A stretch of DNA of 32,000 nt from Candidatus Methanoperedens sp. (lineage in GTDB: Archaea > Halobacteriota > Methanosarcinia > Methanosarcinales > Methanoperedenaceae). The notes below the pieces were generated by a model. The model was not told the origin of the DNA, ran no database searches, and saw only the letters and a program-made list of their open reading frames with translations. The DNA lies in NCBI GenBank assembly GCA_041494705.1, contig JBGQBI010000003.1, positions 296,449 to 328,448 of the forward strand. The letters run 5' to 3'. Positions within the stretch are counted from its first letter, which is position 1. Each line of letters begins with the position of its first letter. The translations under genes were made by a program, and so were the position numbers. Positions 3,768-24,043 of this stretch are shown piece after piece.

Positions 3768-5506
3768 AGAGACTCATTATCTTAATCATTTTTTTATTAT
3801 TGTGGCCAGCTGTTTGCGCTGCTGAAAAAATAAATGGTCTGGATGTTGAGTGGGAATCCGGGACATCATATACCCTTAGCTGGACGAATCCCACAGTCAC
3901 CGTAGGAGATTATGTCATACGGGTTTTTGATTTTGACTGGAAGGGAAATGCGGTCATATCAGTTACAAGAAAAGGCGTGACCCAGAACGGAATAATATCC
4001 AACCAGGGTGAAAACTTAGTTATGGATTTTACAGGAAATAGCACCACTTTCCAGGGAATCCTGATTGGTATGGGAGATGTTTCAAATTATGTATCCATCC
4101 CTGGAACCATCCCAATCAACGTTGGAACATTCCCATGCTGCCCTCAGGCCACTATCAGTATTGCGGTCTCAAAAGATCTTACCCAAAAAAAACCGGTATT
4201 GGAGCTTGATATGGAAACGAACTGGGATGGAGGTCTGGGTAGAATATCAGATATGAATTTTGAAATCAAAAATACTGGCGACGCAGATCTTTCCGGGGGC
4301 AATGTTACGATAAATTTAGACGGCTTAATACCCGCCAATGATAGGCAATTATCAGATAATGCATTAACATATAACCCCAAAAAAGGTATAGTAACCAAAG
4401 GATGGAGCACTCCGCTTTTAAGGAATAATTCGGTCTATTTTAATATATCGGTAAAGTCACCAGTCCCGTCGAATAAAACATCCTTTACGATTTCAGGTCA
4501 GAGTTATTTTAAGGATTCAAGCGGTAATCTGTATTCTGCAACGAAGTCTGAAACCGTCTCCCTTACCCCTACTTTCAGTTTAACGAAATCAATAAGCCAG
4601 TATTCGATTCTTGGCGATAGGTCGTATGGGGATATCGATAAATTCTTCGCTCTTAGTAATGTGAGTGTTGTAAATTTAAATGTTGCGAACACGCAAAGCT
4701 ATTCATTAAAATCGGTGACTCTCACGGATACCGTGATGAATGATTTTGATTTAATAAACGATTCCATAGCCCCAACAAAAGATTTTAAATTAATAAATAA
4801 TAATACATTGCAGTGGGTTTTTGACCTTAATTCAAGTGAATCGAGGGAATTTAAATACCATTTAACCGCCCGGAAAATAGGAAGTTTTACAGCGCCTGGT
4901 GCGGTGGCGCAGTGGAATGCATGGGGAGTTACCGGAAAAGCTTCTTCAAACATGCCTGCAACACGGGTATATGGTGTTTATGTGGTAGTGACCAGGAAAA
5001 CTGATAAAACCAATCCAAAGTTGAACGAAAGCCTGAATGTAACAACTACATTGGAGAATATAGGCGACTTTCCTGCGGGATTTAATGCAACGGATATTCT
5101 TCCGAAAAATACCACATTCATTTCAGGAACCACGACCTTCAGCGGTTATTTGTACCCCAAGTCTGAACCTGTTTCTTTCAATTATAATTTGTCCGTTGAT
5201 AAACCGGGTGATCTGGAATTTCCATCACCTGTAATCACTTTCTGGAAAAAAGATTATGATGGGTCATTTGGTGTAATACCCGGCAATAAAATCACGGTCA
5301 TCGGCCCCTCTCTCTTAGCAGTGGCTGCCGCGGCTTCAGGCCAGGCCAATATCTCCCAGGCTCCCACAGCCACCCCCATCCCCAAGAGTTTGCTTGATAT
5401 CATAGATGAGAAGGTTCCCTGGCTTGAGGGCGCTGTCCCGATAATCATGTTAATTGTTGCTATTATTTTAATGCTTATGCTGCATGTTATTAACAGGGAA
5501 TCATGA
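3764..5506 (+). CDS. Secreted, C-terminally membrane-anchored surface (S-layer/adhesin-like) protein rich in N-glycosylation sequons
   Basis: From a TTG start at 3764 the protein begins with a signal peptide, (M)KRLIILIIFLLLWPAVCAAEK. The body is beta-rich with CARDB/DUF11-like segments (e.g. LNVTTTLENIGDFPAGFNATDILP) and carries more than a dozen N-x-S/T sequons. A C-terminal TM helix (AVPIIMLIVAIILMLMLHVI) is present. The ORF-track start at 3668 adds 32 non-signal residues that overlap the upstream gene. Confidence 0.65.
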   Translation: MKRLIILIIFLLLWPAVCAAEKINGLDVEWESGTSYTLSWTNPTVTVGDYVIRVFDFDWKGNAVISVTRKGVTQNGIISNQGENLVMDFTGNSTTFQGILIGMGDVSNYVSIPGTIPINVGTFPCCPQATISIAVSKDLTQKKPVLELDMETNWDGGLGRISDMNFEIKNTGDADLSGGNVTINLDGLIPANDRQLSDNALTYNPKKGIVTKGWSTPLLRNNSVYFNISVKSPVPSNKTSFTISGQSYFKDSSGNLYSATKSETVSLTPTFSLTKSISQYSILGDRSYGDIDKFFALSNVSVVNLNVANTQSYSLKSVTLTDTVMNDFDLINDSIAPTKDFKLINNNTLQWVFDLNSSESREFKYHLTARKIGSFTAPGAVAQWNAWGVTGKASSNMPATRVYGVYVVVTRKTDKTNPKLNESLNVTTTLENIGDFPAGFNATDILPKNTTFISGTTTFSGYLYPKSEPVSFNYNLSVDKPGDLEFPSPVITFWKKDYDGSFGVIPGNKITVIGPSLLAVAAAASGQANISQAPTATPIPKSLLDIIDEKVPWLEGAVPIIMLIVAIILMLMLHVINRES

Positions 5507-6138
5507 AAGCTGAGAATATTATCGGCTTAGCGATTCTGGTGGTATTCGGACTTATTGTGGGCATACTATTCTCTGTTTATTCGCATGATAAGCAACTCAA
5601 TATTAAATCTGGTAAAACGCCAGGATACCCCAATAACACGCAAATCAATGGCGACAAACAGGTCGAGGGTAACACCCAGGTTTCGAACTTTACAGAGCTG
5701 GTTTCAAATGGAAAAAACATTTGCGAAGGATGCCATCTTTCGGGAAAGAAAATCTATCCCCAGGCATACCAGGTAAAACAGCACGTCGAAGGGGGCGCAT
5801 ATTGCCTCGAATGCCATACGATTGACCATAAAGTGCATCCCATGAGCCCGAAAGATAAAAACGTGACCTGTGAAAGCTGTCATGGGGCAGCATCCCCACA
5901 GGTGCCAACTTTTCGCAACGGTACAATATCATGCGCAAATTGCCATGATTACCCTGACCCGCTAAAGCCAAGCAATGGTAATCTTATTGTGATACACCGC
6001 GAGAGAAATGTGGATTGTATAAAATGCCATCTGGATTCAACTGCCTCTTGTCTTAAGTGCCATAATGAAATTAAAAGCGATGATAAATGGACAAAAAGGC
6101 TTAATCATTTCAATACGATTGTGAAGACAGCCCAATGA
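5503..6138 (+). CDS. Membrane-anchored hexaheme c-type cytochrome
   Basis: Six CxxCH motifs are present (CEGCH, CLECH, CESCH, CANCH, CIKCH, CLKCH). There is an N-terminal TM anchor (IIGLAILVVFGLIVGILFSVY). The start overlaps the upstream stop (ATGA at 5503-5506). Confidence 0.85.
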   Translation: MKAENIIGLAILVVFGLIVGILFSVYSHDKQLNIKSGKTPGYPNNTQINGDKQVEGNTQVSNFTELVSNGKNICEGCHLSGKKIYPQAYQVKQHVEGGAYCLECHTIDHKVHPMSPKDKNVTCESCHGAASPQVPTFRNGTISCANCHDYPDPLKPSNGNLIVIHRERNVDCIKCHLDSTASCLKCHNEIKSDDKWTKRLNHFNTIVKTAQ

Positions 6139-6173
6139 TTTGTTGTTGAGAATTTTGATATTTCCCAAAATGC

Positions 6174-6219
6174 TTATATATAATGAACATAATTGTACAT
6201 CAATGTACTAATATGTACA
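6174..6219 (+). promoter_or_regulatory. Putative trp promoter/operator: TATA-like TTATATATAA (6174-6183) followed by three TGTACA-type boxes at 6194, 6204 and 6214
   Basis: TGTACA (6194-6199), TGTACT (6204-6209) and TGTACA (6214-6219) start exactly 10 bp apart, between the TATA-like element and the ATG at 6231. TGTACA is the TRP-box recognised by TrpY in Methanothermobacter. Confidence 0.45.
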
Positions 6220-6230
6220 ATTTGATATCT

Positions 6231-6989
6231 ATGCACCCGATAATCAATGAAATACTGGAATCAACACAAAAAAGAATTCCGCTTATCACGGATTTTCAAA
6301 AAAAGAATATGACAGCGCGGAATTTCCGGGAAAGCATTGAAACTATAAAGATGAAAAACCGGATTCCGGTAATCGCAGAAGTGAAACCTTCATCCCCGAC
6401 AAGATTTATCAGGAATGTAACCCCGGAAGATGCAGCCGGGATTGCAATGCAGATGGAAGCAGGCGGTGCGGCGGCGATATCCGTGCTGACAGAGCCGCAA
6501 TTTTTTAAAGGAAGCCTTGAGAACTTAAAAACCGTCAGGACTGCCGTAAAAATCCCTGTGCTGAGGAAGGATTTTATCATAGATAAAGCCCAGATTCAGG
6601 AAGTAGAGAGCGATTTGCTCCTGTTGATTGCAGGGATTCTCGGCGATAAACTGGCTGATTTTGTGGATGAGACCCTGTCATCAGGGCGCAAACCACTTGT
6701 CGAAGTGCATAATGAAAAAGAACTTGAAAATGCGCTTTCTACAGACGCCGATATCATAGGGATAAACAACAGGGACCTCACCACGATGAAAGTTGACATA
6801 ACAACAACCGAAAAGCTGGCGCCGCTTATCAACGGCAGGATAATTATCAGTGAAAGCGGGATATCGAGCCGCGAGGATGCCGTCCGTATGATAGACGCCG
6901 GAGCCGACGCTATTCTAGTAGGAACATCTATTATGCAGGGAAATATTTACGATAAAACATACGAATTAGTTCATGCACTGGACAGGTAA
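6231..6989 (+). CDS. trpC: Indole-3-glycerol-phosphate synthase
   Basis: TIM-barrel IGPS motifs are present: IPVIAEVKPSSP, AISVLTEPQFF, PVLRKDFIID, LVEVHNE, IIGINNRDL and ISESGI. The longest ORF starts at 6183, but that ATG lies inside the TATA-like element, so 6231 is preferred. Confidence 0.85.
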   Translation: MHPIINEILESTQKRIPLITDFQKKNMTARNFRESIETIKMKNRIPVIAEVKPSSPTRFIRNVTPEDAAGIAMQMEAGGAAAISVLTEPQFFKGSLENLKTVRTAVKIPVLRKDFIIDKAQIQEVESDLLLLIAGILGDKLADFVDETLSSGRKPLVEVHNEKELENALSTDADIIGINNRDLTTMKVDITTTEKLAPLINGRIIISESGISSREDAVRMIDAGADAILVGTSIMQGNIYDKTYELVHALDR

Positions 6990-7004
6990 AAACAGGGAAA
7001 AAAT

Positions 7005-8192
7005 ATGAAACAGGAATTGAAAAAAACCAAATTCGGCAAATACGGCGGGCAGTTCGTACCTGAGGTATTGATGCCTGCCATCGAGGAATTGACAGAACAA
7101 TACGAGAAATACAAAGACGACCCTGTTTTTAATGAGGAACTGGATTATTACCTGCGGGATTTTGCAGGACGCCCTTCTCCATTATATTTCGCAAAGCACC
7201 TCAGCAGGGAATACGGCGTCAGGATTTACTTAAAGCGCGAAGACCTTATCCACGGCGGCGCGCATAAATTGAATAATACTCTCGGGCAGGCTCTCCTGAC
7301 CAGATATATGGGGAAAAAAAGGATAATAGCAGAGACTGGAGCTGGCCAGCACGGCACAGCCTGCGCGATGGCTGGCGCAGCTTTCGGCATCAAGACCGAG
7401 GTTTACATGGGCGCCAGGGATACGGTGCGCCAGCGCATGAATGTTTACAGGATGGAATTAATGGGAGCAAAGGTCATACCAGTTAAAAGCGGCTCGCAGA
7501 CCCTGAAAGATGCTATCAATGAAGCGATGCGTGACTGGGCGGCCAATGTCGAGACTACCCATTACATGATTGGCTCCGTGGTCGGCCCGCACCCTTATCC
7601 CACGATGGTGCGCGATTTCCAGAGCGTCATAGGAAAAGAAGTCCGCACACAGATTATGGAAAAGGAGGGAAGATTCCCTGATTCCATTGTCGCATGCACT
7701 GGCGGAGGCAGCAATGCCATGGGGATTTTTTATCCTTTCATCGAGGATGATGTTGACCTCTTCGCCGTTGAAGCGGGCGGAAGCGGTATGAAAGTTACCG
7801 ATAAGGAAGCACTCCACTCGGCGACCTTGTGCACGGGTGAAGAGGGTATTCTTCACGGGATGCACACGAAGGTTCTCCAGAATAAGTACGGGCAGATACT
7901 CGAATCAAGTTCGATAGCTGCGGGTCTTGATTATGCAGGCGTTGGCCCGGAACTTGCCTATCTGGCGGACATCGGGAGGATTAAACCCCGAAATTCCATG
8001 GACAGTGAAGCGCTCGATGCGTTCCATGACCTTTGCAGGCTTGAAGGCATTATACCGGCGCTTGAATCTTCGCATGCCCTGGCATATGTCAAAAAGGCGG
8101 CATCGTCGGGGGAACTCGGTGATATTGTTGTAATTAATATTTCAGGAAGAGGCGACAAAGACCTTGAGACCGTGATGGGGATGAAAAAATGA
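7005..8192 (+). CDS. trpB: Tryptophan synthase beta chain
   Basis: Motifs present: [27 protein letters not shown] (PLP lysine), [16 protein letters not shown] and SGRGDKD. Confidence 0.95.
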
Positions 8193-8974
8193 AGATGAGC
8201 GATAAGTTCAACGAGCTAAAGAAGAAAAAAGAAGGCGCGTTAATCGCTTACATCTGTGCCGGAGACCCCACGCCTGAAGCTACGAAAGAATACGTAACCG
8301 CGCTTGTAAGGGGCGGCGCCGATATTATTGAACTCGGGCTTCCATTCTCAGACCCTACCGCAGACGGACCCACCATCCAGGCCGGGATTGAGCGCGCGCT
8401 CAACGGCGGTATGACGCCGGATATTTATTTTAAGACTGTCGGTTCCCTTAAGGTTCATATCCCGCTTGTGGTAATGACTTACTACAACCTTATTTTCAAA
8501 AGAGGCCTTGAAAAATTCGTGAAAGACTGCATCGCATCCGGGATTTCAGGTATTATCGTTCCCGACCTTGCAGCTGAAGAATCCGGCGAACTTGCAGGAT
8601 TCTGCAAACAATACGATGTCGACCTCATTTTCCTTGTGGCTCCCACGACCACGGAGTCGAGGATGAAAAGGATACTGGCAGAAGGGACGGGTTTTATCTA
8701 TCTCGTTGCGCGCATGGGTGTTACAGGGGCTCGGAAGGATGTCGCAGCTTCCACGCGCGAACTGGTTGAAAGGGTGAAGACCCAAACTCCGAAAGTAGTC
8801 GGATTCGGGATATCTAACGGCAAACAGGCTTCGGAAATCATACGCACGGGAGCGGACGGGGTAATCGTAGGGTCTGCATTTGTGGATATTATTGCAGGTG
8901 GGAAAGATGTTCCAGGGAGGCTTGAGGCGCTGGCGAGGGAGTTGAAGGATGGGATACGGTCAGCGAGTAAATGA
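8189..8974 (+). CDS. trpA: Tryptophan synthase alpha chain
   Basis: Motifs present: [22 protein letters not shown] and GFGISNG...[10 protein letters not shown]. There is a 4-nt overlap with trpB. Confidence 0.9.
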
Positions 8975-9597
8975 TTGAGGCCGAATCAAAAGCAATATTA
9001 ATCATATCCCGCAACAATAAAAAAACAATGTTTGAAGATATAAAAGAATTCATAAGGGATGCGCTAAGCCCACTTGCAAAAAAGATAACCGAGATAAATC
9101 CAAACACATTAACCCTTTTCGGGCTTTTACTGAGCCTCATTGCAGGATTCTTTTTTGCAAAGCGCGAGGTTTTACCCGCAGGAGCTTTTCTTCTTGCCAG
9201 CGGATTTTTTGACTCACTCGACGGCCTGGTTGCTCGCGAGAACAAAAGAATTACCCGGTTCGGCGGTTTTCTGGATTCCGTATGCGACAGGTTTGGCGAT
9301 GCGGCAGTGATTATAGGGGCGATTTACGGCGGCCTTGCTATTATTTCCCCTTTTCCCGACTGGTTTATCGGCGTACTTGCGATATTTGGTTCGCTGATGG
9401 TGAGCTACACAAGAGCGAGGGCAGAAGCTGCAGGCGCAAGCGCATCAGTTGGCATCGCGGAACGTCCTGTACGAATGATAATCTTGATTGCAGGCGCTTT
9501 TCTTGACATTGTCAACTGGGCGATTCTTTTTGTGGCAATACTTTCCTTCATTACAATCTTCCAGAGAATCGCACATGTCAGAAAGGTACTGAAATAA
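8971..9597 (+). CDS. CDP-alcohol phosphatidyltransferase, probably archaetidylinositol-phosphate synthase-like
   Basis: It carries the signature D-x2-D-G-x2-A-R...G-x3-D-x3-D (FDSLDGLVARENKRITRFGGFLDSVCDRFGD) and several TM helices, and lies next to an inositol-1-phosphate synthase gene. The start overlaps the trpA stop; an internal Met about 19 codons downstream is an alternative start. Confidence 0.7.
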   Translation: MIEAESKAILIISRNNKKTMFEDIKEFIRDALSPLAKKITEINPNTLTLFGLLLSLIAGFFFAKREVLPAGAFLLASGFFDSLDGLVARENKRITRFGGFLDSVCDRFGDAAVIIGAIYGGLAIISPFPDWFIGVLAIFGSLMVSYTRARAEAAGASASVGIAERPVRMIILIAGAFLDIVNWAILFVAILSFITIFQRIAHVRKVLK

Positions 9598-9642
9598 CAA
9601 CTTTTAAGTCAGATAACGATTATCACTGAGAGGGTATTAAAA

Positions 9643-10707
9643 ATGGCAGGCATTAGAATAGCAATCGCAGGTATTGGTAATTGCGCTTCATCTCTTATCC
9701 AGGGTCTTGAATATTATGACCCTGTAAAAAAATCCGATAAACTCGTCCCGGGATTAATGCATAATTCCCTGGGCGGGTATCTCATCTCGGATATAAAACC
9801 TGTTGCTGCTTTTGATATCGACATGCGTAAGGTGGGAACGGACTTATCCGAAGCTATTTTTTCAGAACCCAATTGCACTAAAAAGTTTTCCGATGTACCT
9901 AATCTGGGTGTTGAAGTAATGAAGGGCGAAGTGCTGGATGGCGTTGCGCCTCACATGAAGGAATACTTCAGGGTGGACAAAAAACAGAAACCTGTTGATG
10001 TAGCCTCGGTCCTGAAAAAGACAAAAGCTGACATATTGATCAATTACTTGCCAGTGGGTTCTGAAGAGGCAGTGAAATGGTATGCTTCGCAGGCTCTTGA
10101 AGCAGGATGCGCGTTCATAAACTGCATTCCTGTATTTATCGCATCAGATAAGCAGTGGGCTGACAAATTCAAAAAAGCGAAACTCCCGATAATCGGGGAC
10201 GATATAAAAAGCCTTGTCGGCGCCACGATAGTTCACCGCGCCCTTACCCAGATGATAGTGGACAGGGGTGCAAAAATCGACAGCACGTACCAGTTGAACA
10301 TAGGCGGAAATACGGATTTCCGGAACATGACCGACCAGTCAAGATTAAAGTCCAAGAAAATCTCAAAAACCGAATCAGTCGCTTCGCAAATTCCGTACGA
10401 CGCGTATGTTTATGCAGGCCCGAACGGGTGCATCGACTGCCTGAATGATAACAAGATATGCCACCTGAAAATTGATTTTAAGCTCTTCGGGGATGTCCCG
10501 GCTTATATTGATTTGAAACTCTCGGTGGAGGACAGCCCGAATAGCGCAGGCGTGGTCGTGGATGCCATCCGTGTCGCGAAAATAGCGCTTGACAGGGGCA
10601 TCGGAGGACCGATATTACCCGCATCGGCTTATTTCATGAAGCACCCCCCAGAGCAGATGCGTGATAGCGAGGCGCGGGAGCAGCTTGAGGAGTTTATCAA
10701 GGAATAA
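9643..10707 (+). CDS. ino1: myo-Inositol-1-phosphate synthase
   Basis: The N-terminal Rossmann motif IAIAGIGNCASSLIQGLEYY is characteristic of prokaryotic MIPS, and the length (354 aa) fits. Confidence 0.8.
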   Translation: MAGIRIAIAGIGNCASSLIQGLEYYDPVKKSDKLVPGLMHNSLGGYLISDIKPVAAFDIDMRKVGTDLSEAIFSEPNCTKKFSDVPNLGVEVMKGEVLDGVAPHMKEYFRVDKKQKPVDVASVLKKTKADILINYLPVGSEEAVKWYASQALEAGCAFINCIPVFIASDKQWADKFKKAKLPIIGDDIKSLVGATIVHRALTQMIVDRGAKIDSTYQLNIGGNTDFRNMTDQSRLKSKKISKTESVASQIPYDAYVYAGPNGCIDCLNDNKICHLKIDFKLFGDVPAYIDLKLSVEDSPNSAGVVVDAIRVAKIALDRGIGGPILPASAYFMKHPPEQMRDSEAREQLEEFIKE

Positions 10708-10717
10708 ACGTTTTATT

Positions 10718-12049
10718 TTATTGCCCTATAACCCGCATTTTTGAAACCCTCACCGTCGGCGTAATCACATTCCCCACATTCCGAACATCCATCCCCACGC
10801 CGTCGATAGTCCTTAAAAGCTCGAAGATATTCCCGGAAATCATCATAGACTTGATGGGCGAAGCAATCTCGCCATCCTTTACCAAAAACGAATTTCTCGC
10901 CTCGACTGAGAAATCACCCGAAATTGGATTGGCTGTATGTGCTCCTATTACAGTATTGACAATAACGCCGTCTTTTGTCTCGCCAATCACATCAAAAGAA
11001 GGATGTTCAATTATCAGGTTGCGTATTCCTATCGATGGCGTCGAGGTGTACGAGCCGCGCACCGCATTGCCAGTGCTTTCTCTTTTTTCTTTTCCTGCAG
11101 TGTAGCAATCGTAAAGGAAAGACGACAGAATACCTTTATTCACAACAGCGATTTTCCGGGACGGCGTACCCTCGTCGTCGCACGAGGATGTCCCCAGACC
11201 ACCGGCGAGCGTTCCGTCATCGATAATAGAAAGGTCATCAGCTGCAATGCTGCTATTGATTTTCCCGACCAGCGATGAACGTCCTTTCTGGACATTATCC
11301 GCGTTTAATGAAGTTACAAGTGTATTTTCAAGAATATCTGCAAAAGCTAGGGGCTCAAGAAGCACAACAGTATCACGCGTTTCCGTGTTTATTCCGTTTC
11401 TTGACCGCGAAGCAAGAGTGGAGGCTTTTTCACCGATTTTATAAAAATCAATGTCAAGCTTCCGGGACATGTCAAATTCAGATGCCGTCGAAAGAGGCGT
11501 ATCCTGTGTTGCTGTATCCACGGTCGCCTGGATGGCCGTATCCTCTTCCTGAACCTCAATGCCGTTTGAGTTCAAAACAAGTTTAGTTGAACTCCCGCAT
11601 GAGAAATGCCCCGAAGTGGGCGAAACCGTGGGAACGGATTTTACACCTTCTATCATCATGGAAGCATAATCCATACATGATTCAATTTCAAGAGCCGCAA
11701 GCTTCTTATCAAAAATGCCTGCAACTTTTGCAGGTTTGCTTTTTTGCGGAAGACCTGACCACTGCGGGTCGCTGCCCCTGACTTTAGCGGATTTTACCGC
11801 GAGATTGCAGGCCTCTTCAATGCGCTGCTCATCATTGGTGCTTGAAAAACCCACCGCGCCTTTGACTATAGCCCTTATCCCGATGCCTGAAACCATGCTC
11901 TCTTTGGCGAGGTCGATTACATCCCGGTGTATGTCGATTGAGATAGACTTGCCTTTTACGCAATAAATCTCGGCTTCATCTGCCCCGGCATTTCTTGTGA
12001 GCAATAGTGCCTTATGCGCTATTTCAAAAATATCCTTCATGGGAACCAT
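10718..12049 (-). CDS. PmbA/TldD-family metalloprotease
   Basis: The 443-aa length fits. Family-typical C-terminal segments are present (GNAVRGSYTSTPSIGIRNLIIE, GAHTANPISGDFS, ISGNIFELL). It converges on ino1, with only 10 bp between the two stops. Confidence 0.75.
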   Translation of the reverse strand: MVPMKDIFEIAHKALLLTRNAGADEAEIYCVKGKSISIDIHRDVIDLAKESMVSGIGIRAIVKGAVGFSSTNDEQRIEEACNLAVKSAKVRGSDPQWSGLPQKSKPAKVAGIFDKKLAALEIESCMDYASMMIEGVKSVPTVSPTSGHFSCGSSTKLVLNSNGIEVQEEDTAIQATVDTATQDTPLSTASEFDMSRKLDIDFYKIGEKASTLASRSRNGINTETRDTVVLLEPLAFADILENTLVTSLNADNVQKGRSSLVGKINSSIAADDLSIIDDGTLAGGLGTSSCDDEGTPSRKIAVVNKGILSSFLYDCYTAGKEKRESTGNAVRGSYTSTPSIGIRNLIIEHPSFDVIGETKDGVIVNTVIGAHTANPISGDFSVEARNSFLVKDGEIASPIKSMMISGNIFELLRTIDGVGMDVRNVGNVITPTVRVSKMRVIGQ

Positions 12050-12144: not shown

Positions 12145-12804
12145 TTATAAGCTGCATCTTCGAACAACCCCAAAGCCACGGGAAACAGATTTGCCAATAC
12201 CAAGATATTCAGGTATCATGAAGTTTATCTGAAATTCGCCCTTAAAACCAATGAGAGGAATGCCTTTTGAATAAACTTTTATGGGTGATACTTTTGTTCT
12301 TACTTTAATTTGGTTAAGAACGACGTATCCGAGAGACTTGGAAATTGAGAGAAGGTTTCCTGCAAGGATTTGATGTAAAAGTTTCACTTTGTTCTTTGGA
12401 TCGAATTTAATATAGGAATCATAATTTATCTCATTCAAAGCTATCCAGGGAACAATAAACATATACTGCATAAAGCTATCAGAACAACCAAATTCCTGGC
12501 TTTTTTCAATTATCTGACGTTCTTCAATTTTGTAAGTCATCTTACCAAGGATAATATCTTCGATATCCCAGGAAATTTCTTTTAAAATCTCAGCCCCTTC
12601 ATCAATTCCAAGTATTACCGGCGTACCTTCAATTATCTTGTATTGCACTTTCGGATATTGGTAAGAGTTCTTACCATTTTCTGCATGCTGGTGCAGAATA
12701 GGATAGTCTTTGAACCTGTTTCCGATGAAGCCCCGCAGTTTCTCAGGGCTTTCAGTTACAGGGTCTTTGGTTTTCAGTATTAGGGTTAGGGTCTGGATGT
12801 CCAT
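12145..12804 (-). CDS. cas6: Cas6 endoribonuclease, paralogue A (attached to the type III-like module)
   Basis: It has a RAMP G-rich loop (LGIGKSVSRGFGVV) and the N-terminal LRGF...LHQH...YPKVQYK pattern. It is paralogous to the ORF at 23154-23846. Confidence 0.85.
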   Translation of the reverse strand: MDIQTLTLILKTKDPVTESPEKLRGFIGNRFKDYPILHQHAENGKNSYQYPKVQYKIIEGTPVILGIDEGAEILKEISWDIEDIILGKMTYKIEERQIIEKSQEFGCSDSFMQYMFIVPWIALNEINYDSYIKFDPKNKVKLLHQILAGNLLSISKSLGYVVLNQIKVRTKVSPIKVYSKGIPLIGFKGEFQINFMIPEYLGIGKSVSRGFGVVRRCSL

Positions 12805-12868
12805 TTTTTTAGTGTTCTACACTGATTCTATATGGCGCCTAAGTCATATATAGTTAAATTATTATATT

Positions 12869-13666
12869 TCATATTTGTTTTATTTTTATATCTACCTTTC
12901 CAAATCCCTTTGACTTGTAACCACCAATGGTTTTTATGCTTGCAAAGCGGTCAATAATAAACTCCTTGATGATCGGATCTATTGACCGTGGATGTCCTGC
13001 AAGCCATGCATCTCCTCCAGTATAATCTTTAAGATTTCTCGCTTTTCCAAGTTCTCTATCTCTAACAGTGTCTTTAATTATAACTGTCAAGGTACCCATG
13101 AATTTAGCACCGTCAGGCACCAACTGGTATGGTCTATTTGTCCCCTGCTTTACGGTCTGGATTGCCCTATCAATATTTGCCGAATATAGTTCATTAACCG
13201 TTGTTTTGGCATACAAAAACGGCACTTTTACAAATCCCTCAAGTCCGTTTGCGCCAAGGAAATAGCAAACCGGACAAATTTCGTGCAATGCTTTGCATTT
13301 TCTATCGCAGGGATAGTGACAGCCATCTCCTTTGATATCCCCTCCGGTCGGCTGGAATAAGTTATAGAATCTATATAACCCATTCACCACAAGCTGATTT
13401 TCATCAGGAGAAAGCTTTGTTGAAGGTATGCAAGGCTGAAGATTTTTATCCGTCCATTTTTTTTCAGCCCTATTAAAATAGGTATCAATCAGGTATCTCT
13501 CAATCTCACAGCGGTAAGCGCCTTTGAGGGTAGAACCCGGAACAACCGCCTTATTGCCCACAAGGGCTATCGGGTTATCTATTCCCGATAAGGGACTTGC
13601 TATCCCCCCGATTCGAATAGGTTCTAAAGTTGTCAATTCAATTTCAAATTCTTTCTGTTCAATCAT
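12869..13666 (-). CDS. cas7: Cas7-group RAMP, Csm3/Cmr4-like (the only Cas7 of the type III-like module)
   Basis: Motifs present: GIDNPIAL (Asp30, at the position of the Csm3/Cmr4 catalytic Asp), VPGSTLKGAYR, CPVCYFLG, and the C-terminal G-rich loop GGYKSKGFGKV. A GGAGG Shine-Dalgarno lies 10-14 nt upstream, inside the end of the preceding gene. Confidence 0.8.
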   Translation of the reverse strand: MIEQKEFEIELTTLEPIRIGGIASPLSGIDNPIALVGNKAVVPGSTLKGAYRCEIERYLIDTYFNRAEKKWTDKNLQPCIPSTKLSPDENQLVVNGLYRFYNLFQPTGGDIKGDGCHYPCDRKCKALHEICPVCYFLGANGLEGFVKVPFLYAKTTVNELYSANIDRAIQTVKQGTNRPYQLVPDGAKFMGTLTVIIKDTVRDRELGKARNLKDYTGGDAWLAGHPRSIDPIIKEFIIDRFASIKTIGGYKSKGFGKVDIKIKQI

Positions 13667-13670
13667 TTTC

Positions 13671-14690
13671 TCAAACCTCCGTTATACTTATCAAACTTTT
13701 TATTATAAACCGTGCAGTTTTTCTGTCTATAGATGGATATTTTTCAATGATTCCAAGTACATGAAGAAGCGTTTCTGCCTGTTGCCTCGTATCCCTTCTG
13801 TTCTTTCTCTCCAACAAAAATGTCCTGGTCATGGTTAACCCCTCCCTTTCGAGAATATCCCCAACTGTATTCTGAAACTTATTTGATAAATACCCAATTT
13901 TTACATTTTTCTTTATTTCTTCAATGACCTTTGCCGCAATATCTTCCGTTTCTGTATTCATTGTTTTGTCACTCTTTGTTTTTAGTAAAAATCCTGGCGC
14001 TTCAACCATGCTGCCTTCAAACAATGAAAGCACATACTTACCTTCTGTTTCGGATGTCGGTTCAAAAAGATATCCGAAATTTGCGTTTTTCACCTTTTTA
14101 ATTCCAAAAACATCATGCAAAAATCTGGTTGGCTTACCTTCTTCAAGTACATTTTTAATATCCTCTTTTCCAGCTTCAAAATCCGCATCATTAAGCTTAA
14201 AAAGTGGCAATCTGGTATTCAATTCACCCTCTCTGGAATCGGCACATGGATCAGTTCCCTTAAAATTCAATTTGCACTCCCCAAAACCTTTGGATTTCAA
14301 TCCACCCATCCAGAAACTTATCTCTCCTTTCTGGGACCATATCTCTTTCACATCTTCATTTTCTTTAAGATACACCTCGCCTTCCACATTGTAAAGATAT
14401 TCGGTATATATAGGAATAATACTTGTTTCAATTGACCTGTTTCGTGGAGAATAAGTGAGTGTCTTAATGTGATTCTCCCTGAACTCAGTCTCATCCTTAA
14501 AAAGAAAATGTCCACATGCATGGATTTGCTTTGACTTACCGGCATTTTTACTGTTTCCAAATTTCGCCTGAAGCGCACCTGTAATCTGGCTATAAGGAAT
14601 TGTTGTAATAACAGGGCGATACTGTCCCTTTTTAAACCTTTCTCCCAGGATGAGCAGATCAGAACTAAAACCAAACTTAAGGATGTTCAT
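13671..14690 (-). CDS. cas5: Cas5-group RAMP (Csm4/Cmr3-like N-terminal about 145 aa) with an unassigned C-terminal extension of about 190 aa
   Basis: The N-terminus has IPYSQITGALQAKFG and a G-rich loop, GGLKSKGFGECKL, at aa 129-141. The gene sits immediately after cas10, as cmr3 and csm4 do. The rest of the protein has no motif I can name; the last 90 aa or so are helical-looking and basic. Confidence 0.6.
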   Translation of the reverse strand: MNILKFGFSSDLLILGERFKKGQYRPVITTIPYSQITGALQAKFGNSKNAGKSKQIHACGHFLFKDETEFRENHIKTLTYSPRNRSIETSIIPIYTEYLYNVEGEVYLKENEDVKEIWSQKGEISFWMGGLKSKGFGECKLNFKGTDPCADSREGELNTRLPLFKLNDADFEAGKEDIKNVLEEGKPTRFLHDVFGIKKVKNANFGYLFEPTSETEGKYVLSLFEGSMVEAPGFLLKTKSDKTMNTETEDIAAKVIEEIKKNVKIGYLSNKFQNTVGDILEREGLTMTRTFLLERKNRRDTRQQAETLLHVLGIIEKYPSIDRKTARFIIKSLISITEV

Positions 14691-16708
14691 TCTTCATCCC
14701 CCATGATTTTTGCATATGTCAAAATTGTTTTAAAATCAATCTTTTTATCCTGCGCTCTGATTGGCTCAAAAGCATTGTAAACTCTATAATCTCCTCTATC
14801 ATAAACAAGAACCTTTGCCAATTTCTCTGAGGTCTCCGATATCTTGGCAAGCTTATGAAGCTGCTTGGAGGCAGGTATTTTGAAATCTTTTATTAAGACT
14901 TTGAGCTGGTTTAAAGTGAGGTGCATCCCACCCCTTCCAATCAAAATAACATTCACATCATTTTTTGGGTTCTCAAGGATTTTCCAGTGCCTAAAAAAGG
15001 CAAATTTTACATTGGATACTGAAATTGAGAGGGTAACTGGAGATTTTTGTTCCTTTAGCTCGGGGAAGCACTCCATAAATATGTTACTATATATTTCCAG
15101 GATATCTTTTATCTGGCTTATTTTTTCGAGTTTGATACAAAGAAAATCATTAAGGATAGGCTGGAAGTTCTCGGTTTTAAAATATTCTTCTAAATTTTTG
15201 TTGAAATTTTTGAGGAATAAATCATAATCTTTCTGGAATTCAGCAAGAACGGAAAAGCGTAGTTCAATTTTTTCAGAGATTGCACCTTTAAGGGTATTTT
15301 GGATATATTTGTCAAGTAGTGTTTGTAATGTTTCTGCCAGAGATTCAATATCCAGATTAATTTTGATCCAAGCAATTTTGGAATTAGGTTCTTCTTTATA
15401 CCATTGTTCAATTTTAGGAGCAGGTGGCTCTTTTCTAAAATCTCTAATAGAATAGCAACTTTCACAGAGGTGTTCCGTTATTCCGCTTTCTTCATCGTTC
15501 CAATCTTTTTCTGCTGGATGCATTTGACAGATTTCACAAAGCTTATTGATTGTGATTGATAGATTACCATAATAATTGCTTATAGGAAAACGGCTCTCAA
15601 ACTCCAAACGGTCTTTATCTAACTCTTTTAATTTGTTTGTTTTTAAGTTGATATCCGGTATTTTTTCAAGGTTTACCCGTTGTTTTTTGATGCTATTTTC
15701 AAAACGTTGAGATTCTTGTTCTTTAATTATTTTCGGTGTAAGATTTGCATATTCCAGGATCGTATTTGCTCCTTCGATATTAACAATGAAACCTCTTTCT
15801 ATAAAGGGTTTAACAAGTTGTGTAATTGATTCATCTGGAGGGAGTAACGCCAAGAATTGAGTAGAAGTATTAAGGATAATATTATCATTTTGTGAAAATT
15901 TAGATATTTCATTATTTAAAATTTGAAAAATATGTAAATCCTTAACTCTAACAGGATAATGTGGAAATTTAATCTGAACCCTTATGATATTTAAATTCCA
16001 CTTTTTTCTGGCGTCATTTGGACTGTTCGCAGTTTTACCTCCAAAGGAGAGAGTACCTTTAGAGACTTCTTTGGTATTTGCTTCGAAGAATCTAAACAGC
16101 TTTCCAACAAGGTTTGAATGAGTAAAAAGACTGGTAATATTCTTAGGTGGTTCAAAATCTTCTGGTCTCTCCAGCATATTTTTATTAAAATTCTGGAAAT
16201 ATTGCTCTTTATCTTGAACAACATTTGTAAAAGCAACCAATGATTTAAAATCATTCTCAGAAGAAAATAGTTTAATTTCTTCGTTGTAAGGCTTCCACAA
16301 CTTTAAGAGAGTCCTGTTTTCAAATTTAATATCAATTTTTCCAATCTCTTTATTTGTCAAAGTTCTTGAAATAGATGATGCCATATAATCAGCTAAACAT
16401 TGCAAAAAAACTGGATACTCTTTCTTCTTTTCTGCATATTCTGAGATCAAATCCTTTGTTGATTTATCTGGAGGATCATGGTGATATCTAATATTTTTGT
16501 ATGTAAGGGTTTCAGTAAAATTTACTCCAAATAACCTCAGATAGTGTAATTCTTCACCTGTTTCCTTATTTATGCATAAAAAATTGTGGTTCCAATCTAT
16601 TTTTTCAATAGGAATACCAAGTTTTTGCGAAATAAATTGCCTAATCCAATAACTATCCACAAGCTTCCCAATATCATGAAGTTCTGGAATAATTTTATCC
16701 TCAGACAT
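14687..16708 (-). CDS. cas10: Cas10-like large subunit: N-terminal HD nuclease motifs intact, Zn ribbon present, cyclase GGDD motif absent
   Basis: HD-domain motifs are LHDIGK (H11 D12), RYHHD (H76 H77) and LADYMASSISR (D107). The Zn ribbon is CEIC...CESC (C391, C394, C415, C418). Palm2-like strands are IAWIKINLDIESL and TLSISVSNVKF. The expected GGDD position reads PILNDFLCI (aa 517-525), and no GGD string occurs anywhere in the protein. Confidence 0.7.
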   Translation of the reverse strand: MSEDKIIPELHDIGKLVDSYWIRQFISQKLGIPIEKIDWNHNFLCINKETGEELHYLRLFGVNFTETLTYKNIRYHHDPPDKSTKDLISEYAEKKKEYPVFLQCLADYMASSISRTLTNKEIGKIDIKFENRTLLKLWKPYNEEIKLFSSENDFKSLVAFTNVVQDKEQYFQNFNKNMLERPEDFEPPKNITSLFTHSNLVGKLFRFFEANTKEVSKGTLSFGGKTANSPNDARKKWNLNIIRVQIKFPHYPVRVKDLHIFQILNNEISKFSQNDNIILNTSTQFLALLPPDESITQLVKPFIERGFIVNIEGANTILEYANLTPKIIKEQESQRFENSIKKQRVNLEKIPDINLKTNKLKELDKDRLEFESRFPISNYYGNLSITINKLCEICQMHPAEKDWNDEESGITEHLCESCYSIRDFRKEPPAPKIEQWYKEEPNSKIAWIKINLDIESLAETLQTLLDKYIQNTLKGAISEKIELRFSVLAEFQKDYDLFLKNFNKNLEEYFKTENFQPILNDFLCIKLEKISQIKDILEIYSNIFMECFPELKEQKSPVTLSISVSNVKFAFFRHWKILENPKNDVNVILIGRGGMHLTLNQLKVLIKDFKIPASKQLHKLAKISETSEKLAKVLVYDRGDYRVYNAFEPIRAQDKKIDFKTILTYAKIMGDEE

Positions 16709-16872
16709 TTACTCACCCTTTAAGGAAAAATTGCTACAATTAATGACTTAACTCGTACTTATTCTATATAACAGTTCTCATAAATTAATGTTTCAGTTTG
16801 TCTTTTTAAAAACTAGTTTTTTCTGAGAACCAATTGAATAAAGCGATTGTAGATTACAATTTACATAATAAT

Positions 16873-19800
16873 GTTTCAATCCTTGTTTTAGTGGATGTGC
16901 CTCTTGAATTAAAAATCTATTCATGGATGGTGAAGAAGGGTTAATGTTTCAATCCTTGTTTTAGTGGATGTGCCTCTTGAATGCTGAATGGAAACGGCTG
17001 GGGTATCGCAAAAGCGGGAGTAGAGTTTCAATCCTTGTTTTAGTGGATGTGCCTCTTGAATGCAACAGCTTATAGCAGAATATGACAATAAACATAAGTT
17101 TCAATCCTTGTTTTAGTGGATGTGCCTCTTGAATATAACTGTATGTCCTCGATGTCATTCGTGGGCGAGGAGTTTCAATCCTTGTTTTAGTGGATGTGCC
17201 TCTTGAATATTATCAAGAGTTCCTGAAAACGCAAAATATCTGGAAGTTTCAATCCTTGTTTTAGTGGATGTGCCTCTTGAATGTCAGGGAACGGGAAGAA
17301 CGAAAACGGGAAGTTCTGGTTTCAATCCTTGTTTTAGTGGATGTGCCTCTTGAATGAGAAAGAGATTGATGATGATATTTTCGCTATTGGTTTCAATCCT
17401 TGTTTTAGTGGATGTGCCTCTTGAATTCTTGATTGCCCGGATGGATCTATTAATTGAACAGAAGTTTCAATCCTTGTTTTAGTGGATGTGCCTCTTGAAT
17501 TGCAAAAATCTGGTTTGAATTATTCGGCATTACTACGGTTTCAATCCTTGTTTTAGTGGATGTGCCTCTTGAATGAAGAGTTTTGTACAATGCAGCAAGG
17601 GCGTAATGAAGTTTCAATCCTTGTTTTAGTGGATGTGCCTCTTGAATCTTTCAGTTCATCTGTTTTTTCAACTGCTTTGATGTTAGTTTCAATCCTTGTT
17701 TTAGTGGATGTGCCTCTTGAATCCCTCTTCACGGAAGGAAAGGCAGGAGAACTACAGTTTCAATCCTTGTTTTAGTGGATGTGCCTCTTGAATAGTTGAA
17801 AAACCCGTGCCCGCTTGCGAGAATGTCAGTTTCAATCCTTGTTTTAGTGGATGTGCCTCTTGAATATGACAGCTCCAACAATTCCGGATATCTTTGTATG
17901 TTTCAATCCTTGTTTTAGTGGATGTGCCTCTTGAATAATTATCGAAAAAACCTTATACGCCGACGAAACAGGTTTCAATCCTTGTTTTAGTGGATGTGCC
18001 TCTTGAATTATGCTCTGGTGATATCATGGTCTCGAGAGCATATGGTTTCAATCCTTGTTTTAGTGGATGTGCCTCTTGAATGTCTTTCTGTATTCCATCA
18101 AGTCCACGATCCTGAGTTTCAATCCTTGTTTTAGTGGATGTGCCTCTTGAATCTGATCCGTTTTTTTTATTCCCTGGAAGAACACCAGGGTTTCAATCCT
18201 TGTTTTAGTGGATGTGCCTCTTGAATTTTCTATGGTGTGTGCGGTCAGGCCCCTGACCTGACAAGTTTCAATCCTTGTTTTAGTGGATGTGCCTCTTGAA
18301 TCGGGTATGCGGTTTCATAATCACGCCTGAACCTTAGTTTCAATCCTTGTTTTAGTGGATGTGCCTCTTGAATGCCTCGAATCCGCGCAAGGCGTCGGAT
18401 ATCGTGGGTTTCAATCCTTGTTTTAGTGGATGTGCCTCTTGAATTCTTTTTCAGCAACAGGAGGAACACATGCCACAGAGTTTCAATCCTTGTTTTAGTG
18501 GATGTGCCTCTTGAATCCGCCCATATAGCGCAAAACAACCCGCCCATCTGGGTTTCAATCCTTGTTTTAGTGGATGTGCCTCTTGAATTCAAGCGTCTGC
18601 CGCTCACGGACTATGAGAAGGCAGTTTCAATCCTTGTTTTAGTGGATGTGCCTCTTGAATTATATTGCTTTTTTGGTGCGACCACAAGAGATATAGTTTC
18701 AATCCTTGTTTTAGTGGATGTGCCTCTTGAATAATATTTTAGAAAAGCATGTCGGCAGGCATATCAAGTTTCAATCCTTGTTTTAGTGGATGTGCCTCTT
18801 GAATACAATCAAGAAGTCATGTACATTCTCAGTCTACTAGGTTTCAATCCTTGTTTTAGTGGATGTGCCTCTTGAATGAAAAGCAGGAGGAGTGGAAGCC
18901 TATATATATATAAGTTTCAATCCTTGTTTTAGTGGATGTGCCTCTTGAATCCGAGCGCAGCGGAAATTATCTCATTTGAAATAATAGTTTCAATCCTTGT
19001 TTTAGTGGATGTGCCTCTTGAATAATCAGGTGCAGGAGCGCCGTAATCGAATCCTTCATGTTTCAATCCTTGTTTTAGTGGATGTGCCTCTTGAATTACA
19101 CCTTTTTCCCCTTTTGAATTGGTACATTTTTGTTTCAATCCTTGTTTTAGTGGATGTGCCTCTTGAATAGGCTCGATGATAAGAACTCTCCATGCGAAAG
19201 CTGGTTTCAATCCTAGTTTTCGTGGATGTGCCTCTTGAATATCCAAAGTCCGAACATAACTTTCCAAGCTTACAGTTTAAATCCTTGTTTTAGTGGATGT
19301 GCCTCTTGAATATAGCGGGTATATTTATATAGTGTCTAACCAATGTTGTTTCAATCCTTGTTTTAGTGGATGTGCCTCTTGAATGTCCGAAGCGGATCAA
19401 GCGCGTGGACTGTGGCTTCAGTTTCAATCCTTGTTTTAGTGGATGTGCCTCTTGAATTTTCTCAATGGAAGTGCGTACAAGAACAATGTGACGTTTCAAT
19501 CCTTGTTTTAGTGGATGTGCCTCTTGAATCCTTGAGGGTGAGTAGCGAGGCTACCGCATATTATAGTTTCAATCCTTGTTTTAGTGGATGTGCCTCTTGA
19601 ATTCAGGTACATCCCGCCGAAGCTGCACCTGTTCCGCGGTTTCAATCCTTGTTTTAGTGGATGTGCCTCTTGAATCTCCGGCTGCCGGGCAAAGCGGCCA
19701 TTGTTCAAAGTTTCAATCCTTGTTTTAGTGGATGTGCCTCTTGAATCTGGTTCATGAAGGGATACCCGATTTCAAGGAGCTTAGTTTCAATCCTTGTTTT

Positions 19801-20977
19801 AGTGGATGTGCCTCTTGAATGTACATTTATGAATTGGAAGTAATCGTTAAACTTGTTTCAATCCTTGTTTTAGTGGATGTGCCTCTTGAATACGGCGGAG
19901 ATAGCGTCTTCGGAGTACAGTACGAGGTTTCAATCCTTGTTTTAGTGGATGTGCCTCTTGAATCCCATATGATTTTTTCAGACAGTTTCAGCGCAGGTGT
20001 TTCAATCCTTGTTTTAGTGGATGTGCCTCTTGAATTCCTCAATCGAGGAAGTCAGCCGGGCAGAAATGAGTTTCAATCCTTGTTTTAGTGGATGTGCCTC
20101 TTGAATGAAGCGGATCAAGCGCGTGGACTGCGGTTTCGTGAAGTTTCAATCCTTGTTTTAGTGGATGTGCCTCTTGAATGCCCGGCAGCGCGGGAGCCGC
20201 AAGCGCGAACAACAGTTTCAATCCTTGTTTTAGTGGATGTGCCTCTTGAATTTTGTCGTGAAGAAATGGCGGAAGCAATGTGGAGGTTTCAATCCTTGTT
20301 TTAGTGGATGTGCCTCTTGAATTACGCTCATAAATCCTCAGGAGGGATTGATTCAAAGTTTCAATCCTTGTTTTAGTGGATGTGCCTCTTGAATGAAGAG
20401 GCGACCGCGCGGTTGAAGGAGTTCATGAAGTTTCAATCCTTGTTTTAGTGGATGTGCCTCTTGAATACAAGGAATATCAATGTTGATTCCACAGAGAAAA
20501 AAAGTTTCAATCCTTGTTTTAGTGGATGTGCCTCTTGAATCAGGACGGGGTTTGTAGTGTGCAGGCCCTCGAATACCAGGGTTTCAATCCTTGTTTTAGT
20601 GGATGTGCCTCTTGAATGCGCTGAACGCATACAAGGGAAACGGCTTTCTGGAGTTTCAATCCTTGTTTTAGTGGATGTGCCTCTTGAATTTTTGGTACCA
20701 TTCCTTATCCTAGGAACGAGAAAGTTTCAATCCTTGTTTTAGTGGATGTGCCTCTTGAATCATCTGCGATATGGTTGTTTGGTAATCAGACAAATGGTTT
20801 CAATCCTTGTTTTAGTGGATGTGCCTCTTGAATTGTGATCTCGCTTCCGGAACTCGCCTCATCACCGAGTTTCAATCCTTGTTTTAGTGGATGTGCCTCT
20901 TGAATTCCAGGTTCCTATAGGATCGGTGTAGAGAATATTAGTTTCAATCCTTGTTTTAGTGGATGTGCCTCTTGAAT
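16873..20977 (-). CRISPR. CRISPR array with 57 repeats of 37 bp and 56 spacers of 34-42 bp
   Basis: The + strand repeat is GTTTCAATCCTTGTTTTAGTGGATGTGCCTCTTGAAT. Its reverse complement ends in ATTGAAAC, a typical 8-nt 5' tag, which gives - strand transcription with the leader at the high-coordinate end next to cas4. All 57 repeats were located by hand, and the spacer lengths sum correctly to the span. The variant repeats are at 19204-19240 (2 substitutions) and 19275-19311 (1 substitution). Confidence 0.97.
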
Positions 20978-21085
20978 AGCACGAATTTTCGGCTATTTGG
21001 GTCAAAATACGTGTTATTATGGCTTATTTCTTGTGCTCAAAATTCTTGGTGCAAAATTATAGAATGGTTTATAAAGACAAGAAAA
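20978..21085 (-). promoter_or_regulatory. Putative CRISPR leader with palindromic TATA-like box TTTATAAA (21068-21075)
   Basis: This is a 108-bp non-coding segment between the cas4 stop and the first repeat. The orientation is inferred from the repeat polarity and the cas gene direction. Confidence 0.5.
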
Positions 21086-22958
<1,873 letters not shown>

Positions 22959-23106
22959 GTTTATTCCCCCTGAACGCTTTGCGATTTTTGCACCGCAGAG
23001 AACGCAAAGGACGCAAAGATTATGCTTTATATTGTCATGTTGTTTTCGTTTCTTAATATATTAACCGCAGATAAACGCAAAACTTTATGAAAGTTTTATC
23101 AAACGA

Positions 23107-23127
23107 GGGGTATGCTTCGCATACCCC
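23107..23127 (-). terminator. GC-rich hairpin GGGGTATGC-TTC-GCATACCCC downstream of cas6-B
   Basis: A 9-bp perfect stem with a 3-nt loop lies about 27 nt after the cas6-B stop. A second inverted repeat, AAACCGAA/TTCGGTTT (23138-23155), spans the stop codon. Confidence 0.4.
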
Positions 23128-23153
23128 AACACTGCGTAAACCGAAGTTTCGGT

Positions 23154-23846
23154 TTATGAACGCAGATGCCTGATTGCATAAGGCTCCTCTTTTGCCAGAC
23201 CTTTAACAGCCCCGAAGCCTCTTGAAACTGATTTCCCGATGCCAAGATAATCAGGTATGAGGAAGTTGGTACAGAATCCTCCGATGAAGGTCATCACGTT
23301 TACGTCTTTTAACCTGCTTTTCCTGATATTTACATCAACATCGCATTTTATCTTTTCGGGTACCTGATAATCTAAAGATTTTGACACGGAAAGAAGGTTC
23401 CCAATGAGCGTTTTTCTAAGGAATTCATTTCTATCCTCATGACTCTTAAGACCATAGTACTTCATGTAATTCTCCTGGTTGAGCGCAAGCCATGGCGTGG
23501 CGAACTCGTAGGAATGTATCTTTTCCGAAATCCCAAACTCCTGGTTCCTGACAGAGATGCCCTTCTCTACGATCTCATAAACCTCCTCGCCAAGTTTTAT
23601 TTCATCGTATTTATCATAAACCAGTTTTAAAACGTCGGCGCCGTCATTGATTCCGATGACCATGGGCGCGCCGTCTATCATCTTGTACTGCACGAGGGGA
23701 TAGCGATAGATGAGCCTGTCGGCGCTGTGCTGGTGGAGGAGGGAGTATTCGTTGAATTGGGTGGCGAAGAAGCCGCGAAGCTCTGCTGAGGTGCCCTGGA
23801 TGGGGCGGGTGGAAGCGAGGGTGAGGGTGAAGGTTTTGAGGTTCAT
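23154..23846 (-). CDS. cas6: Cas6 endoribonuclease, paralogue B (type I-B side)
   Basis: It has the G-rich loop LGIGKSVSRGFGAV and the LRGFF...LHQH...YPLVQYK pattern. The ATG at 23846 (MNLKTFTLTLAS) is preferred over the GTG at 23858 because the upstream relic copy starts at the homologous ATG. Confidence 0.85.
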   Translation of the reverse strand: MNLKTFTLTLASTRPIQGTSAELRGFFATQFNEYSLLHQHSADRLIYRYPLVQYKMIDGAPMVIGINDGADVLKLVYDKYDEIKLGEEVYEIVEKGISVRNQEFGISEKIHSYEFATPWLALNQENYMKYYGLKSHEDRNEFLRKTLIGNLLSVSKSLDYQVPEKIKCDVDVNIRKSRLKDVNVMTFIGGFCTNFLIPDYLGIGKSVSRGFGAVKGLAKEEPYAIRHLRS

Positions 23847-23935
23847 ATTTTTATGCACTATGTTTTATCACTTTGGTCTGCTACTGCATTGCGGCGCTGG
23901 GGTTGCGACCCCAGACCCCGGTGAGGCGCCGCCGA
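23847..23935. repeat. Copy A of an imperfect direct repeat of about 90 bp flanking the MNT/HEPN cassette
   Basis: Collinear blocks ATGCACTAT, TTATCA, CTTTGGT, TGCAT and GGCGCCGCCG are shared with 24963-25049. Copy A additionally carries the hairpin CTGGGGT-TGCG-ACCCCAG (23897-23914). Confidence 0.6.
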
Positions 23936-24043
23936 TGGCGGGGTTTTCTGTAAGCAGATTGTTACATGTTAACCAGTTTTGAAATTCTAGCGCTGCTATT
24001 TTTGATGCTTATTAATTTGTGAACATTTTCACTTATGAGGTCT

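Follow-up and report, generated by a model that had tools for sequence, protein, structure and literature searches.

Canonical effectors of III-A and III-B have an active GGDD cyclase, at least two distinct Cas7 paralogues and a stand-alone, multi-copy Cas11. Subtype III-F departs from this plan. Its prototype in the classification of Makarova et al. 2020, as cited in PMC8036902 and PMC12669027, is Tlet_0097-0100 of Thermotoga lettingae. Surveys describe III-F as having an HD domain and no cyclase motifs or effectors (PMC11229360), and most III-F loci are reported to be without arrays, though exceptions exist (PMC12669027). In III-Dv (III-D2) of Synechocystis (PDB 8s9t-8s9x), the minor filament consists of one Cas11 domain and the Cas10 C-terminus, the length of the CRISPR RNA (crRNA) is fixed, and upstream of the operon there are accessory genes for Csm6 and Csx1 (PMC11026444). 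In III-H, a distant kin of III-F described from the related archaeon Candidatus Argoarchaeum ethanivorans, Cas10 is said to have a diverged Cas11 in place of its C-terminal domain (PMC12669027). Here we analysed a stretch of 32,000 nucleotides (nt), hereafter the window, from Candidatus Methanoperedens sp. (assembly GCA_041494705.1, contig JBGQBI010000003.1, positions 296,449 to 328,448), and in it a block of four minus-strand genes at 12145-16708. The block is very probably a subtype III-F module of a Methanoperedens-like archaeon, composed of Cas10f, a fused Cas5f-Cas11f, Cas7f and Cas6b and operating by the mechanism proposed below.

The module consists of cas10f (14687-16708, 673 amino acids (aa)), a fused cas5f-cas11f open reading frame (ORF; 13671-14690, 339 aa), cas7f (12869-13666, 265 aa) and a III-F-linked cas6b (12145-12804, 219 aa). 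The first two ORFs overlap by 4 nt (14687-14690), a 4-nt gap (13667-13670) follows the second, and a GGAGG located 9-13 nt ahead of the cas7 ATG sits within the preceding gene. The overlap, the gap, the GGAGG in the preceding gene and the 164 bp from the end of the last repeat (16873) to the cas10 ATG (16708) had been listed in an earlier interpretation made from the letters alone (the sequence-only reading), and all were confirmed. The profile search that it had proposed for the four proteins was uninformative in Pfam and NCBIfam for the two largest, the 673-aa protein having no match and the 339-aa protein marginal ones of no use, whereas PADLOC resolved all four. The 673-aa protein matched Cas10a|Cas10f over its full length (E 5e-96). 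The 339-aa protein matched Cas5_IIIf (E 7e-41, aa 3-238) and, behind it, Cas11f. The 265-aa protein matched Cas7_IIIf (E 4e-59) as well as Pfam RAMPs, and the 219-aa protein matched PADLOC Cas6 (E 3e-78) together with Pfam Cas6b_N (E 1e-31) and Cas6b_C (E 9e-36). These III-F-specific matches, and a Csm1 fold for Cas10f, bear out the earlier suggestion of a type III effector module with III-F as its closest subtype; the gene order, which it had likened to the III-B core, fits that of III-F (cas10-cas5-cas11-cas7) better.

The 339-aa ORF holds the very gene that the sequence-only reading had reported missing. Its Cas5f (Csm4-like) domain (aa 1-240, 13971-14690) can be aligned with stand-alone Cas5f proteins of about 200 aa. 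The remainder is a Cas11f small-subunit domain (aa 244-339, 13671-13961), which matched the PADLOC profile Cas11f (CAS-III-F effector_SS) at E 2e-16 over aa 253-336 and, over aa 244-336, shares 72% identity with a 103-aa cas11 that stands alone at L005:8560-8871. The AlphaFold2 (AF2) model, with a predicted local distance difference test score (pLDDT) of 84.8, contains an N-terminal RAMP domain and a C-terminal helical bundle (helices 239-337), with residues 241-246 forming a low-confidence, disordered linker. Foldseek matched this model to Cmr3 and Csm4, and its best PDB match was the Cas7-Cas5-Cas11 fusion subunit of III-Dv. Thus cas11 is present, fused to the C-terminus of Cas5f, and the module is not Cas11-less.

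The locus that carries the stand-alone gene, L005, is a close relative (its Cas10f is 68% identical to that of the window) and lies downstream of a long array. Its genes are arranged as cas10f (684 aa), cas5f (244 aa), the 103-aa ORF, cas7f (265 aa), an Mrr-like gene and cas6b. At the L005 junction, GGAGGAGAGG precedes the cas5 stop codon and cas11 starts 6 nt further on; at the window junction there is an in-frame KTKSDKT linker, and the stop codon and GGAGG Shine-Dalgarno of L005 are absent. Because the identical 339-aa protein is present in four independent assemblies and 23 of the 119 Cas5f clusters are fused, the fusion is real, and a sequencing or frameshift artefact was ruled out on these grounds. 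The ratios of nonsynonymous to synonymous substitution rates (dN/dS), 0.06-0.31 for the four full-length genes, showed the module to be under purifying selection; those of the Cas5 and Cas11 domains against fused orthologues were 0.06-0.25, except for the Cas11 domain against L011 (0.49). Fused and split forms were intermixed when the Cas5 domains were placed in a neighbour-joining tree. By this tree, therefore, fusion or fission occurred several times, as a recurrent minor event that marks no distinct lineage. A joined Cas5-Cas11 is already known from III-Dv, and in III-F the fusion is evolutionarily labile; no mention of a III-F cas5-cas11 fusion was found in the literature searched. Cas11 proteins of III-F occur in two size classes, about 90-120 aa (PADLOC PDLC01224, the window clade) and about 170-200 aa (PDLC01223), as seen by comparing L018:12635-13228 and L032:12574-13083 with 13671-13961 of the window.

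For Cas10f, the AF2 model (pLDDT 86.6) had only Csm1 chains as its top Foldseek matches in the PDB. The N-terminal HD motif reads ELHDIGK, of which LHDIGK is presumably the Csm1 HD motif. In an alignment of 32 Cas10f sequences, the residues E9, H11, D12, K15, H76 and D107 were invariant, as were all four cysteines of a Cys4 zinc finger (C391, C394, C415 and C418). At the GGDD position, on the other hand, the window has GRGGM (aa 592-596), the consensus is GKGEM and distant members have unrelated residues; no acidic pair is conserved at this Palm2 site among the 32 sequences. Judged by these residues, the HD motif of Cas10f is intact and its cyclase palm is dead, since the GGDD site reads GRGGM and is unconserved in the family. 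This agrees with the surveys of III-F and with the HD-positive, cyclase-dead Cas10 of the sequence-only reading. Identity along the protein is mosaic: against the Methanoperedens orthologues at L009:649-2532 and L011:9998-12166, aa 1-500 are 16-56% identical and aa 550-673 are 78-90% identical, with cas5-11f, cas7f and cas6b of the same two loci at 80-95%. This suggests a recombination breakpoint within cas10f that exchanged the HD/Palm1 half.

Cas7f is the only type III Cas7 (RAMP backbone) gene in the window, and the 219-aa protein is the one Cas6 of the module, both as anticipated. A profile search of the PDB with Cas7f returned Csm3 and III-D Cas7, with idNPv aligned to tDNPi. Its Asp30 (GIDNPI; nt about 13577-13579) aligns with the tDNPi/iDsPv motif of the catalytic Csm3-type Asp. 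In the Cas7f alignment this residue was conserved in the window clade, and most III-F relatives had K, E or H instead. The Csm3-type Asp is retained in the window clade, L012, L017, L048 and L054. From this distribution, III-F may be functionally heterogeneous in RNA cleavage. The Cas6b is, by its profiles, a predicted crRNA-processing endoribonuclease and a paralogue linked to the III-F module, with 43% identity to the I-B-linked Cas6b at 23154-23858. A cas6b downstream of cas7f was also found in L005, L008, L009 and L011. Consistent with the earlier interpretation, no CARF, SAVED or Csm6/Csx1 profile matched any of the annotated window ORFs scanned.

We scanned species-representative genomes and obtained 48 Cas10f loci, spread over many phyla of archaea and bacteria. 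To the 32 of these 48 that have cas10f, cas5f and cas7f we added the window and L005, which gave a survey set of 34 loci. The order cas10f-cas5f-cas11f-cas7f held in every locus extending far enough. The sequence-only reading had taken III-F to be usually without an array or cas6, but within 10 kb we found a CRISPR array at 20 of the 34 loci, Cas6 at 15, Cas1 at 16 and Cas3 at 18, and association with arrays, cas6 and type I genes is common among the sampled loci. The search for the same block in related genomes, which it had also proposed, showed that the full layout of I-B genes, cas1-2-4, array, cas10f, cas5-11f, cas7f and cas6b recurs in another Methanoperedens species (L011). In L005 and L006, a gene between cas7f and cas6b (L005:9680-11149, L006:4099-5568) encodes a protein of 489 aa that has an Mrr_cat restriction-endonuclease domain and is absent from the window; it may be an ancillary nuclease of the split-gene relatives.

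III-F modules were also embedded within I-B or I-A operons (L010, L018, L019, L022, L029, L032 and L039). In L018 (4937-18126), PADLOC gave the order cas6b-cas8b-cas7b-cas5b-[PD-DExK]-cas10f-cas5f-cas11f-cas7f-cas3-cas4-cas1, followed by cas2 and an array. In L032 (7636-19787), it gave cas3'-cas3''-cas10f-cas5f-cas11f-cas7f-cas8a/11a-cas7a-cas5a, followed by cas6, cas1, cas2, cas4 and an array. The insertion points observed (L018, L032, L029, L039, L010, L022) were cas5b/cas3, cas3''/cas8a, cas7b/cas5b and cas6b/cas1. We found no statement on such insertion of III-F into type I operons in the accessible literature. An I-D-like hybrid of III-F with Cas3 alone was considered and rejected, as PADLOC revealed complete, divergent Cascade genes of I-B in L018 and of I-A in L032, which had escaped single-sequence hidden Markov models.

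The III-F module of the window stands at the trailer end of an I-B array whose cas genes lie upstream on the same strand. The array (16873-20977, minus strand) has 57 repeats of 37 nt and 56 spacers; 57 repeat matches were found against 0 expected by chance, and 54 repeats are identical. On the minus strand the repeat reads ATTCAAGAGGCACATCCACTAAAACAAGGATTGAAAC and ends in ATTGAAAC, so the array is oriented like all the cas genes, and this repeat end would yield an 8-nt 5' tag. Two neighbouring mid-array repeats (19204-19311) deviate, one by 2 substitutions and the next by 1. The repeats at the two ends of the array are perfect, and thus there is no degenerate trailer repeat beside cas10f. Between that trailer repeat and cas10f, the intergenic stretch (16709-16872, minus strand, 164 bp), as read from its letters, has a GGTGA ribosome-binding site as well as TATA-like elements rich in AT (TTATATAG), from which we infer a putative promoter. 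At the other end, from cas4 to the first repeat, lies a putative leader (20978-21085, minus strand), so assigned from the repeat orientation.

Beyond the leader, the adaptation module (21086-22958) encodes cas1 (21990-22958), cas2 (21682-22023) and cas4 (21086-21685), with NCBIfam matches TIGR00287, TIGR01573 and TIGR00372 all above cut-off. The I-B interference module (23154-32000; PADLOC and NCBIfam matches) encodes cas8b (29808-32000), cas7b (28733-29806), cas5b (27903-28730), cas3 (25161-27896) and its own cas6b (23154-23858), and all of these genes are on the minus strand. With Cas8b, Cas7b, Cas5b, Cas3, Cas6b and Cas1-Cas2-Cas4 at 21086-32000, plus the array, the I-B set is complete. It is a separate system with a shared array, outside the four-gene III-F module. 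A toxin-antitoxin pair (24044-24921, minus strand), HepT (a HEPN RNase toxin) and MntA (a nucleotidyltransferase antitoxin), is inserted within the I-B operon, with cas3 on one side and cas6b on the other. The window cas proteins have their closest relatives in Methanoperedens. The flank at 1-12049 carries housekeeping genes, including a BatD-like protein, a multihaem cytochrome c (5503-6138) and TldD/PmbA; it also carries trpC/trpB/trpA, a CDP-alcohol phosphatidyltransferase and an inositol-1-phosphate synthase, named from a precomputed Pfam table only.

By inference from Csm/Cmr and III-Dv biology, we propose the following mechanism. Cas6b would cleave the shared pre-crRNA within the repeat, leaving an 8-nt AUUGAAAC 5' tag. 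Cas5f would bind this tag beside Cas10f, and several Cas7f copies would coat the guide, so that each crRNA would carry one Cas10f, one Cas5f-Cas11f and several Cas7f. The fused Cas11f domain and the helical C-terminus of Cas10f would form a short minor filament. By analogy with III-Dv, the fused Cas11 probably restricts this filament to a single small subunit and the Cas10 C-terminus. Once a complementary transcript is bound, Cas7f would cleave the RNA through Asp30, and the HD domain of Cas10f would be licensed to cut single-stranded DNA close by. No cyclic-oligoadenylate signal would be made. III-F would then be a probable second line of defence, independent of a protospacer-adjacent motif (PAM) and using the same guides as I-B, because Cas1-Cas2-Cas4 of the I-B system acquires the spacers.

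Several points weigh against this assignment and mechanism. The III-F assignment is based on profiles and on homology to the 48 loci of the same gene order, and sequence searches of the PDB returned no relative for either Cas10f or Cas5-11f. Our genomic scope is the 32-kb window, and other type III genes may be present elsewhere. No III-F biochemistry or structure was found in the literature searched, and reviews enter the III-F target only as 'DNA?' (PMC8036902). Furthermore, since the Cas7 Asp is missing in most III-F relatives, RNA cleavage may not be a property of the family. The last two points also feed the main rival of transcript targeting, a Cascade-like mode in which the complex binds DNA instead of a transcript and the Cas10f HD domain acts on it, possibly with the type I Cas3 as in I-D, leaving no role for RNA cleavage. 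For related HD-positive subtypes that lack the Cas7 Asp, the classification authors predicted that DNA is cleaved (PMC12669027), and the insertion point of III-F genes is often immediately between cas3 and the Cascade genes of type I. However, every locus with an adjacent cas3 also has a full type I Cascade, so this Cas3 need not belong to III-F. By profile and fold, all III-F subunits resemble those of Csm, a Cas8-like domain that would read a PAM was not seen, and the window clade has kept the Csm3-type Asp under purifying selection. We therefore regard the DNA-binding mode as rather unlikely for the window module.

The remaining alternatives concern the small subunit. The sequence-only reading had put forward, as a possibility, a minimal type III derivative not yet described, without Cas11 and separate from III-F, and the annotation explains why: Pfam and NCBIfam recognise next to nothing in the two largest proteins, so that standard annotation comes without a cas11 and the homologues are called hypothetical in public sources. 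Nevertheless, the Cas11f profile match, the 72% identity to a stand-alone cas11 and the AF2 helical bundle all fall inside the 339-aa ORF, every effector protein matches a III-F profile, and the gene order is identical in 30 or more III-F loci. Finding all proteins in a defined subtype and recovering cas11 are the very outcomes by which that reading said it would fall, and we give the Cas11-less derivative next to no credence. A different possibility accepts the fusion and adds a free Cas11, made from an internal translation start at Met244 of the fused ORF, in which case the number of Cas11 copies would not be fixed. Met244 is the exact counterpart of the cas11 start codon in L005, and internally translated Cas11 has a precedent in cas8/cas10d genes of types I-B, I-C and I-D (bioRxiv 10.1101/2020.04.18.045682). 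Yet initiation there is unlikely, because the GGAGG Shine-Dalgarno ahead of the L005 cas11 is lost in the window and Met244 is unconserved, being replaced by L, R or a gap in fused homologues that are more distant.

What seemed to be a minimal type III system without Cas11 is an annotation artefact resulting from a gene fusion, and the locus belongs to an already classified rare subtype, III-F, defined in 2020. It offers a compact four-gene III-F (Cas10f, Cas5-Cas11f, Cas7f and Cas6b) with a cognate 56-spacer array and a split-gene comparator in L005, and these three assets make it a convenient candidate for reconstitution. Such reconstitution could address whether III-F cuts RNA, DNA or both and how many small subunits it needs. 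As a tentative and rather doubtful extension, the covalent Cas5f-Cas11f link would fix one Cas11 per complex; with the fusion gained and lost repeatedly, III-F effectors in general would then be minimal complexes of the Csm kind, in which one small subunit sits beside Cas5. If true, and taken with the habit of III-F of inserting into type I-A/I-B operons, III-F would be a dedicated 'rider' effector that reuses type I guides as a signalling-free, PAM-independent backup and that still cuts RNA in this archaeal clade.

Compared with described systems, the module resembles III-A Csm in its predicted folds, which pair Cas10f with Csm1, Cas5f with Csm4 and Cas7f with Csm3. Unlike III-A, and unlike canonical III-A/III-B systems in general, it has no GGDD and a single Cas7, without a Csm5-type second Cas7 or Csm6 in the window, and its Cas11 is fused. 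It shares with III-Dv the covalent joining of Cas5 to Cas11 in the same N-to-C order. In III-Dv, however, Cas7 is also fused, Cas7-2x, Cas7-insertion and Csx19 are present, and no subunit is repeated (PMC11026444), whereas in the window Cas7f is separate and presumably multimeric and the cyclase is inactive. The window has neither a Csx19-like nor a multi-Cas7 gene, and the triple fusion of III-D2 (III-Dv) is absent. Like III-H, the module combines an HD-positive, cyclase-dead Cas10 and a single Cas7 with the lack of a stand-alone cas11 gene. III-H has a Cas7 without the Asp and no adaptation modules, while the window has Asp30, an adjacent cas1-2-4 and Cas11f on Cas5. The window Cas10f, including its C-terminus, aligns with other III-F Cas10 proteins, and its whole model matches Csm1, with the C-terminal domain assessed within this whole-protein comparison. 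Membership in III-H was rejected on its published defining features, Cas11 being on Cas5 and the Cas7 Asp being kept, and the two are set apart by description. The window module differs from the III-F prototype in that a single ORF encodes Cas5 and Cas11, cas7 is followed by a dedicated cas6b, and the module directly abuts an array and an I-B system; it differs from most III-F relatives in keeping the catalytic-type Asp of Cas7f. In all other respects listed here it is like III-F: an HD Cas10 with an inactive cyclase and no GGDD, a single Csm3-like Cas7, a Csm4-like Cas5, a Cas11 encoded between cas5 and cas7 in the order cas10-cas5-cas11-cas7, no CARF or other cyclic-oligoadenylate effector, and III-F-specific profiles matching every subunit. 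As Cas11f is fused to Cas5f, the gene content of the window module is that of III-F plus cas6b.

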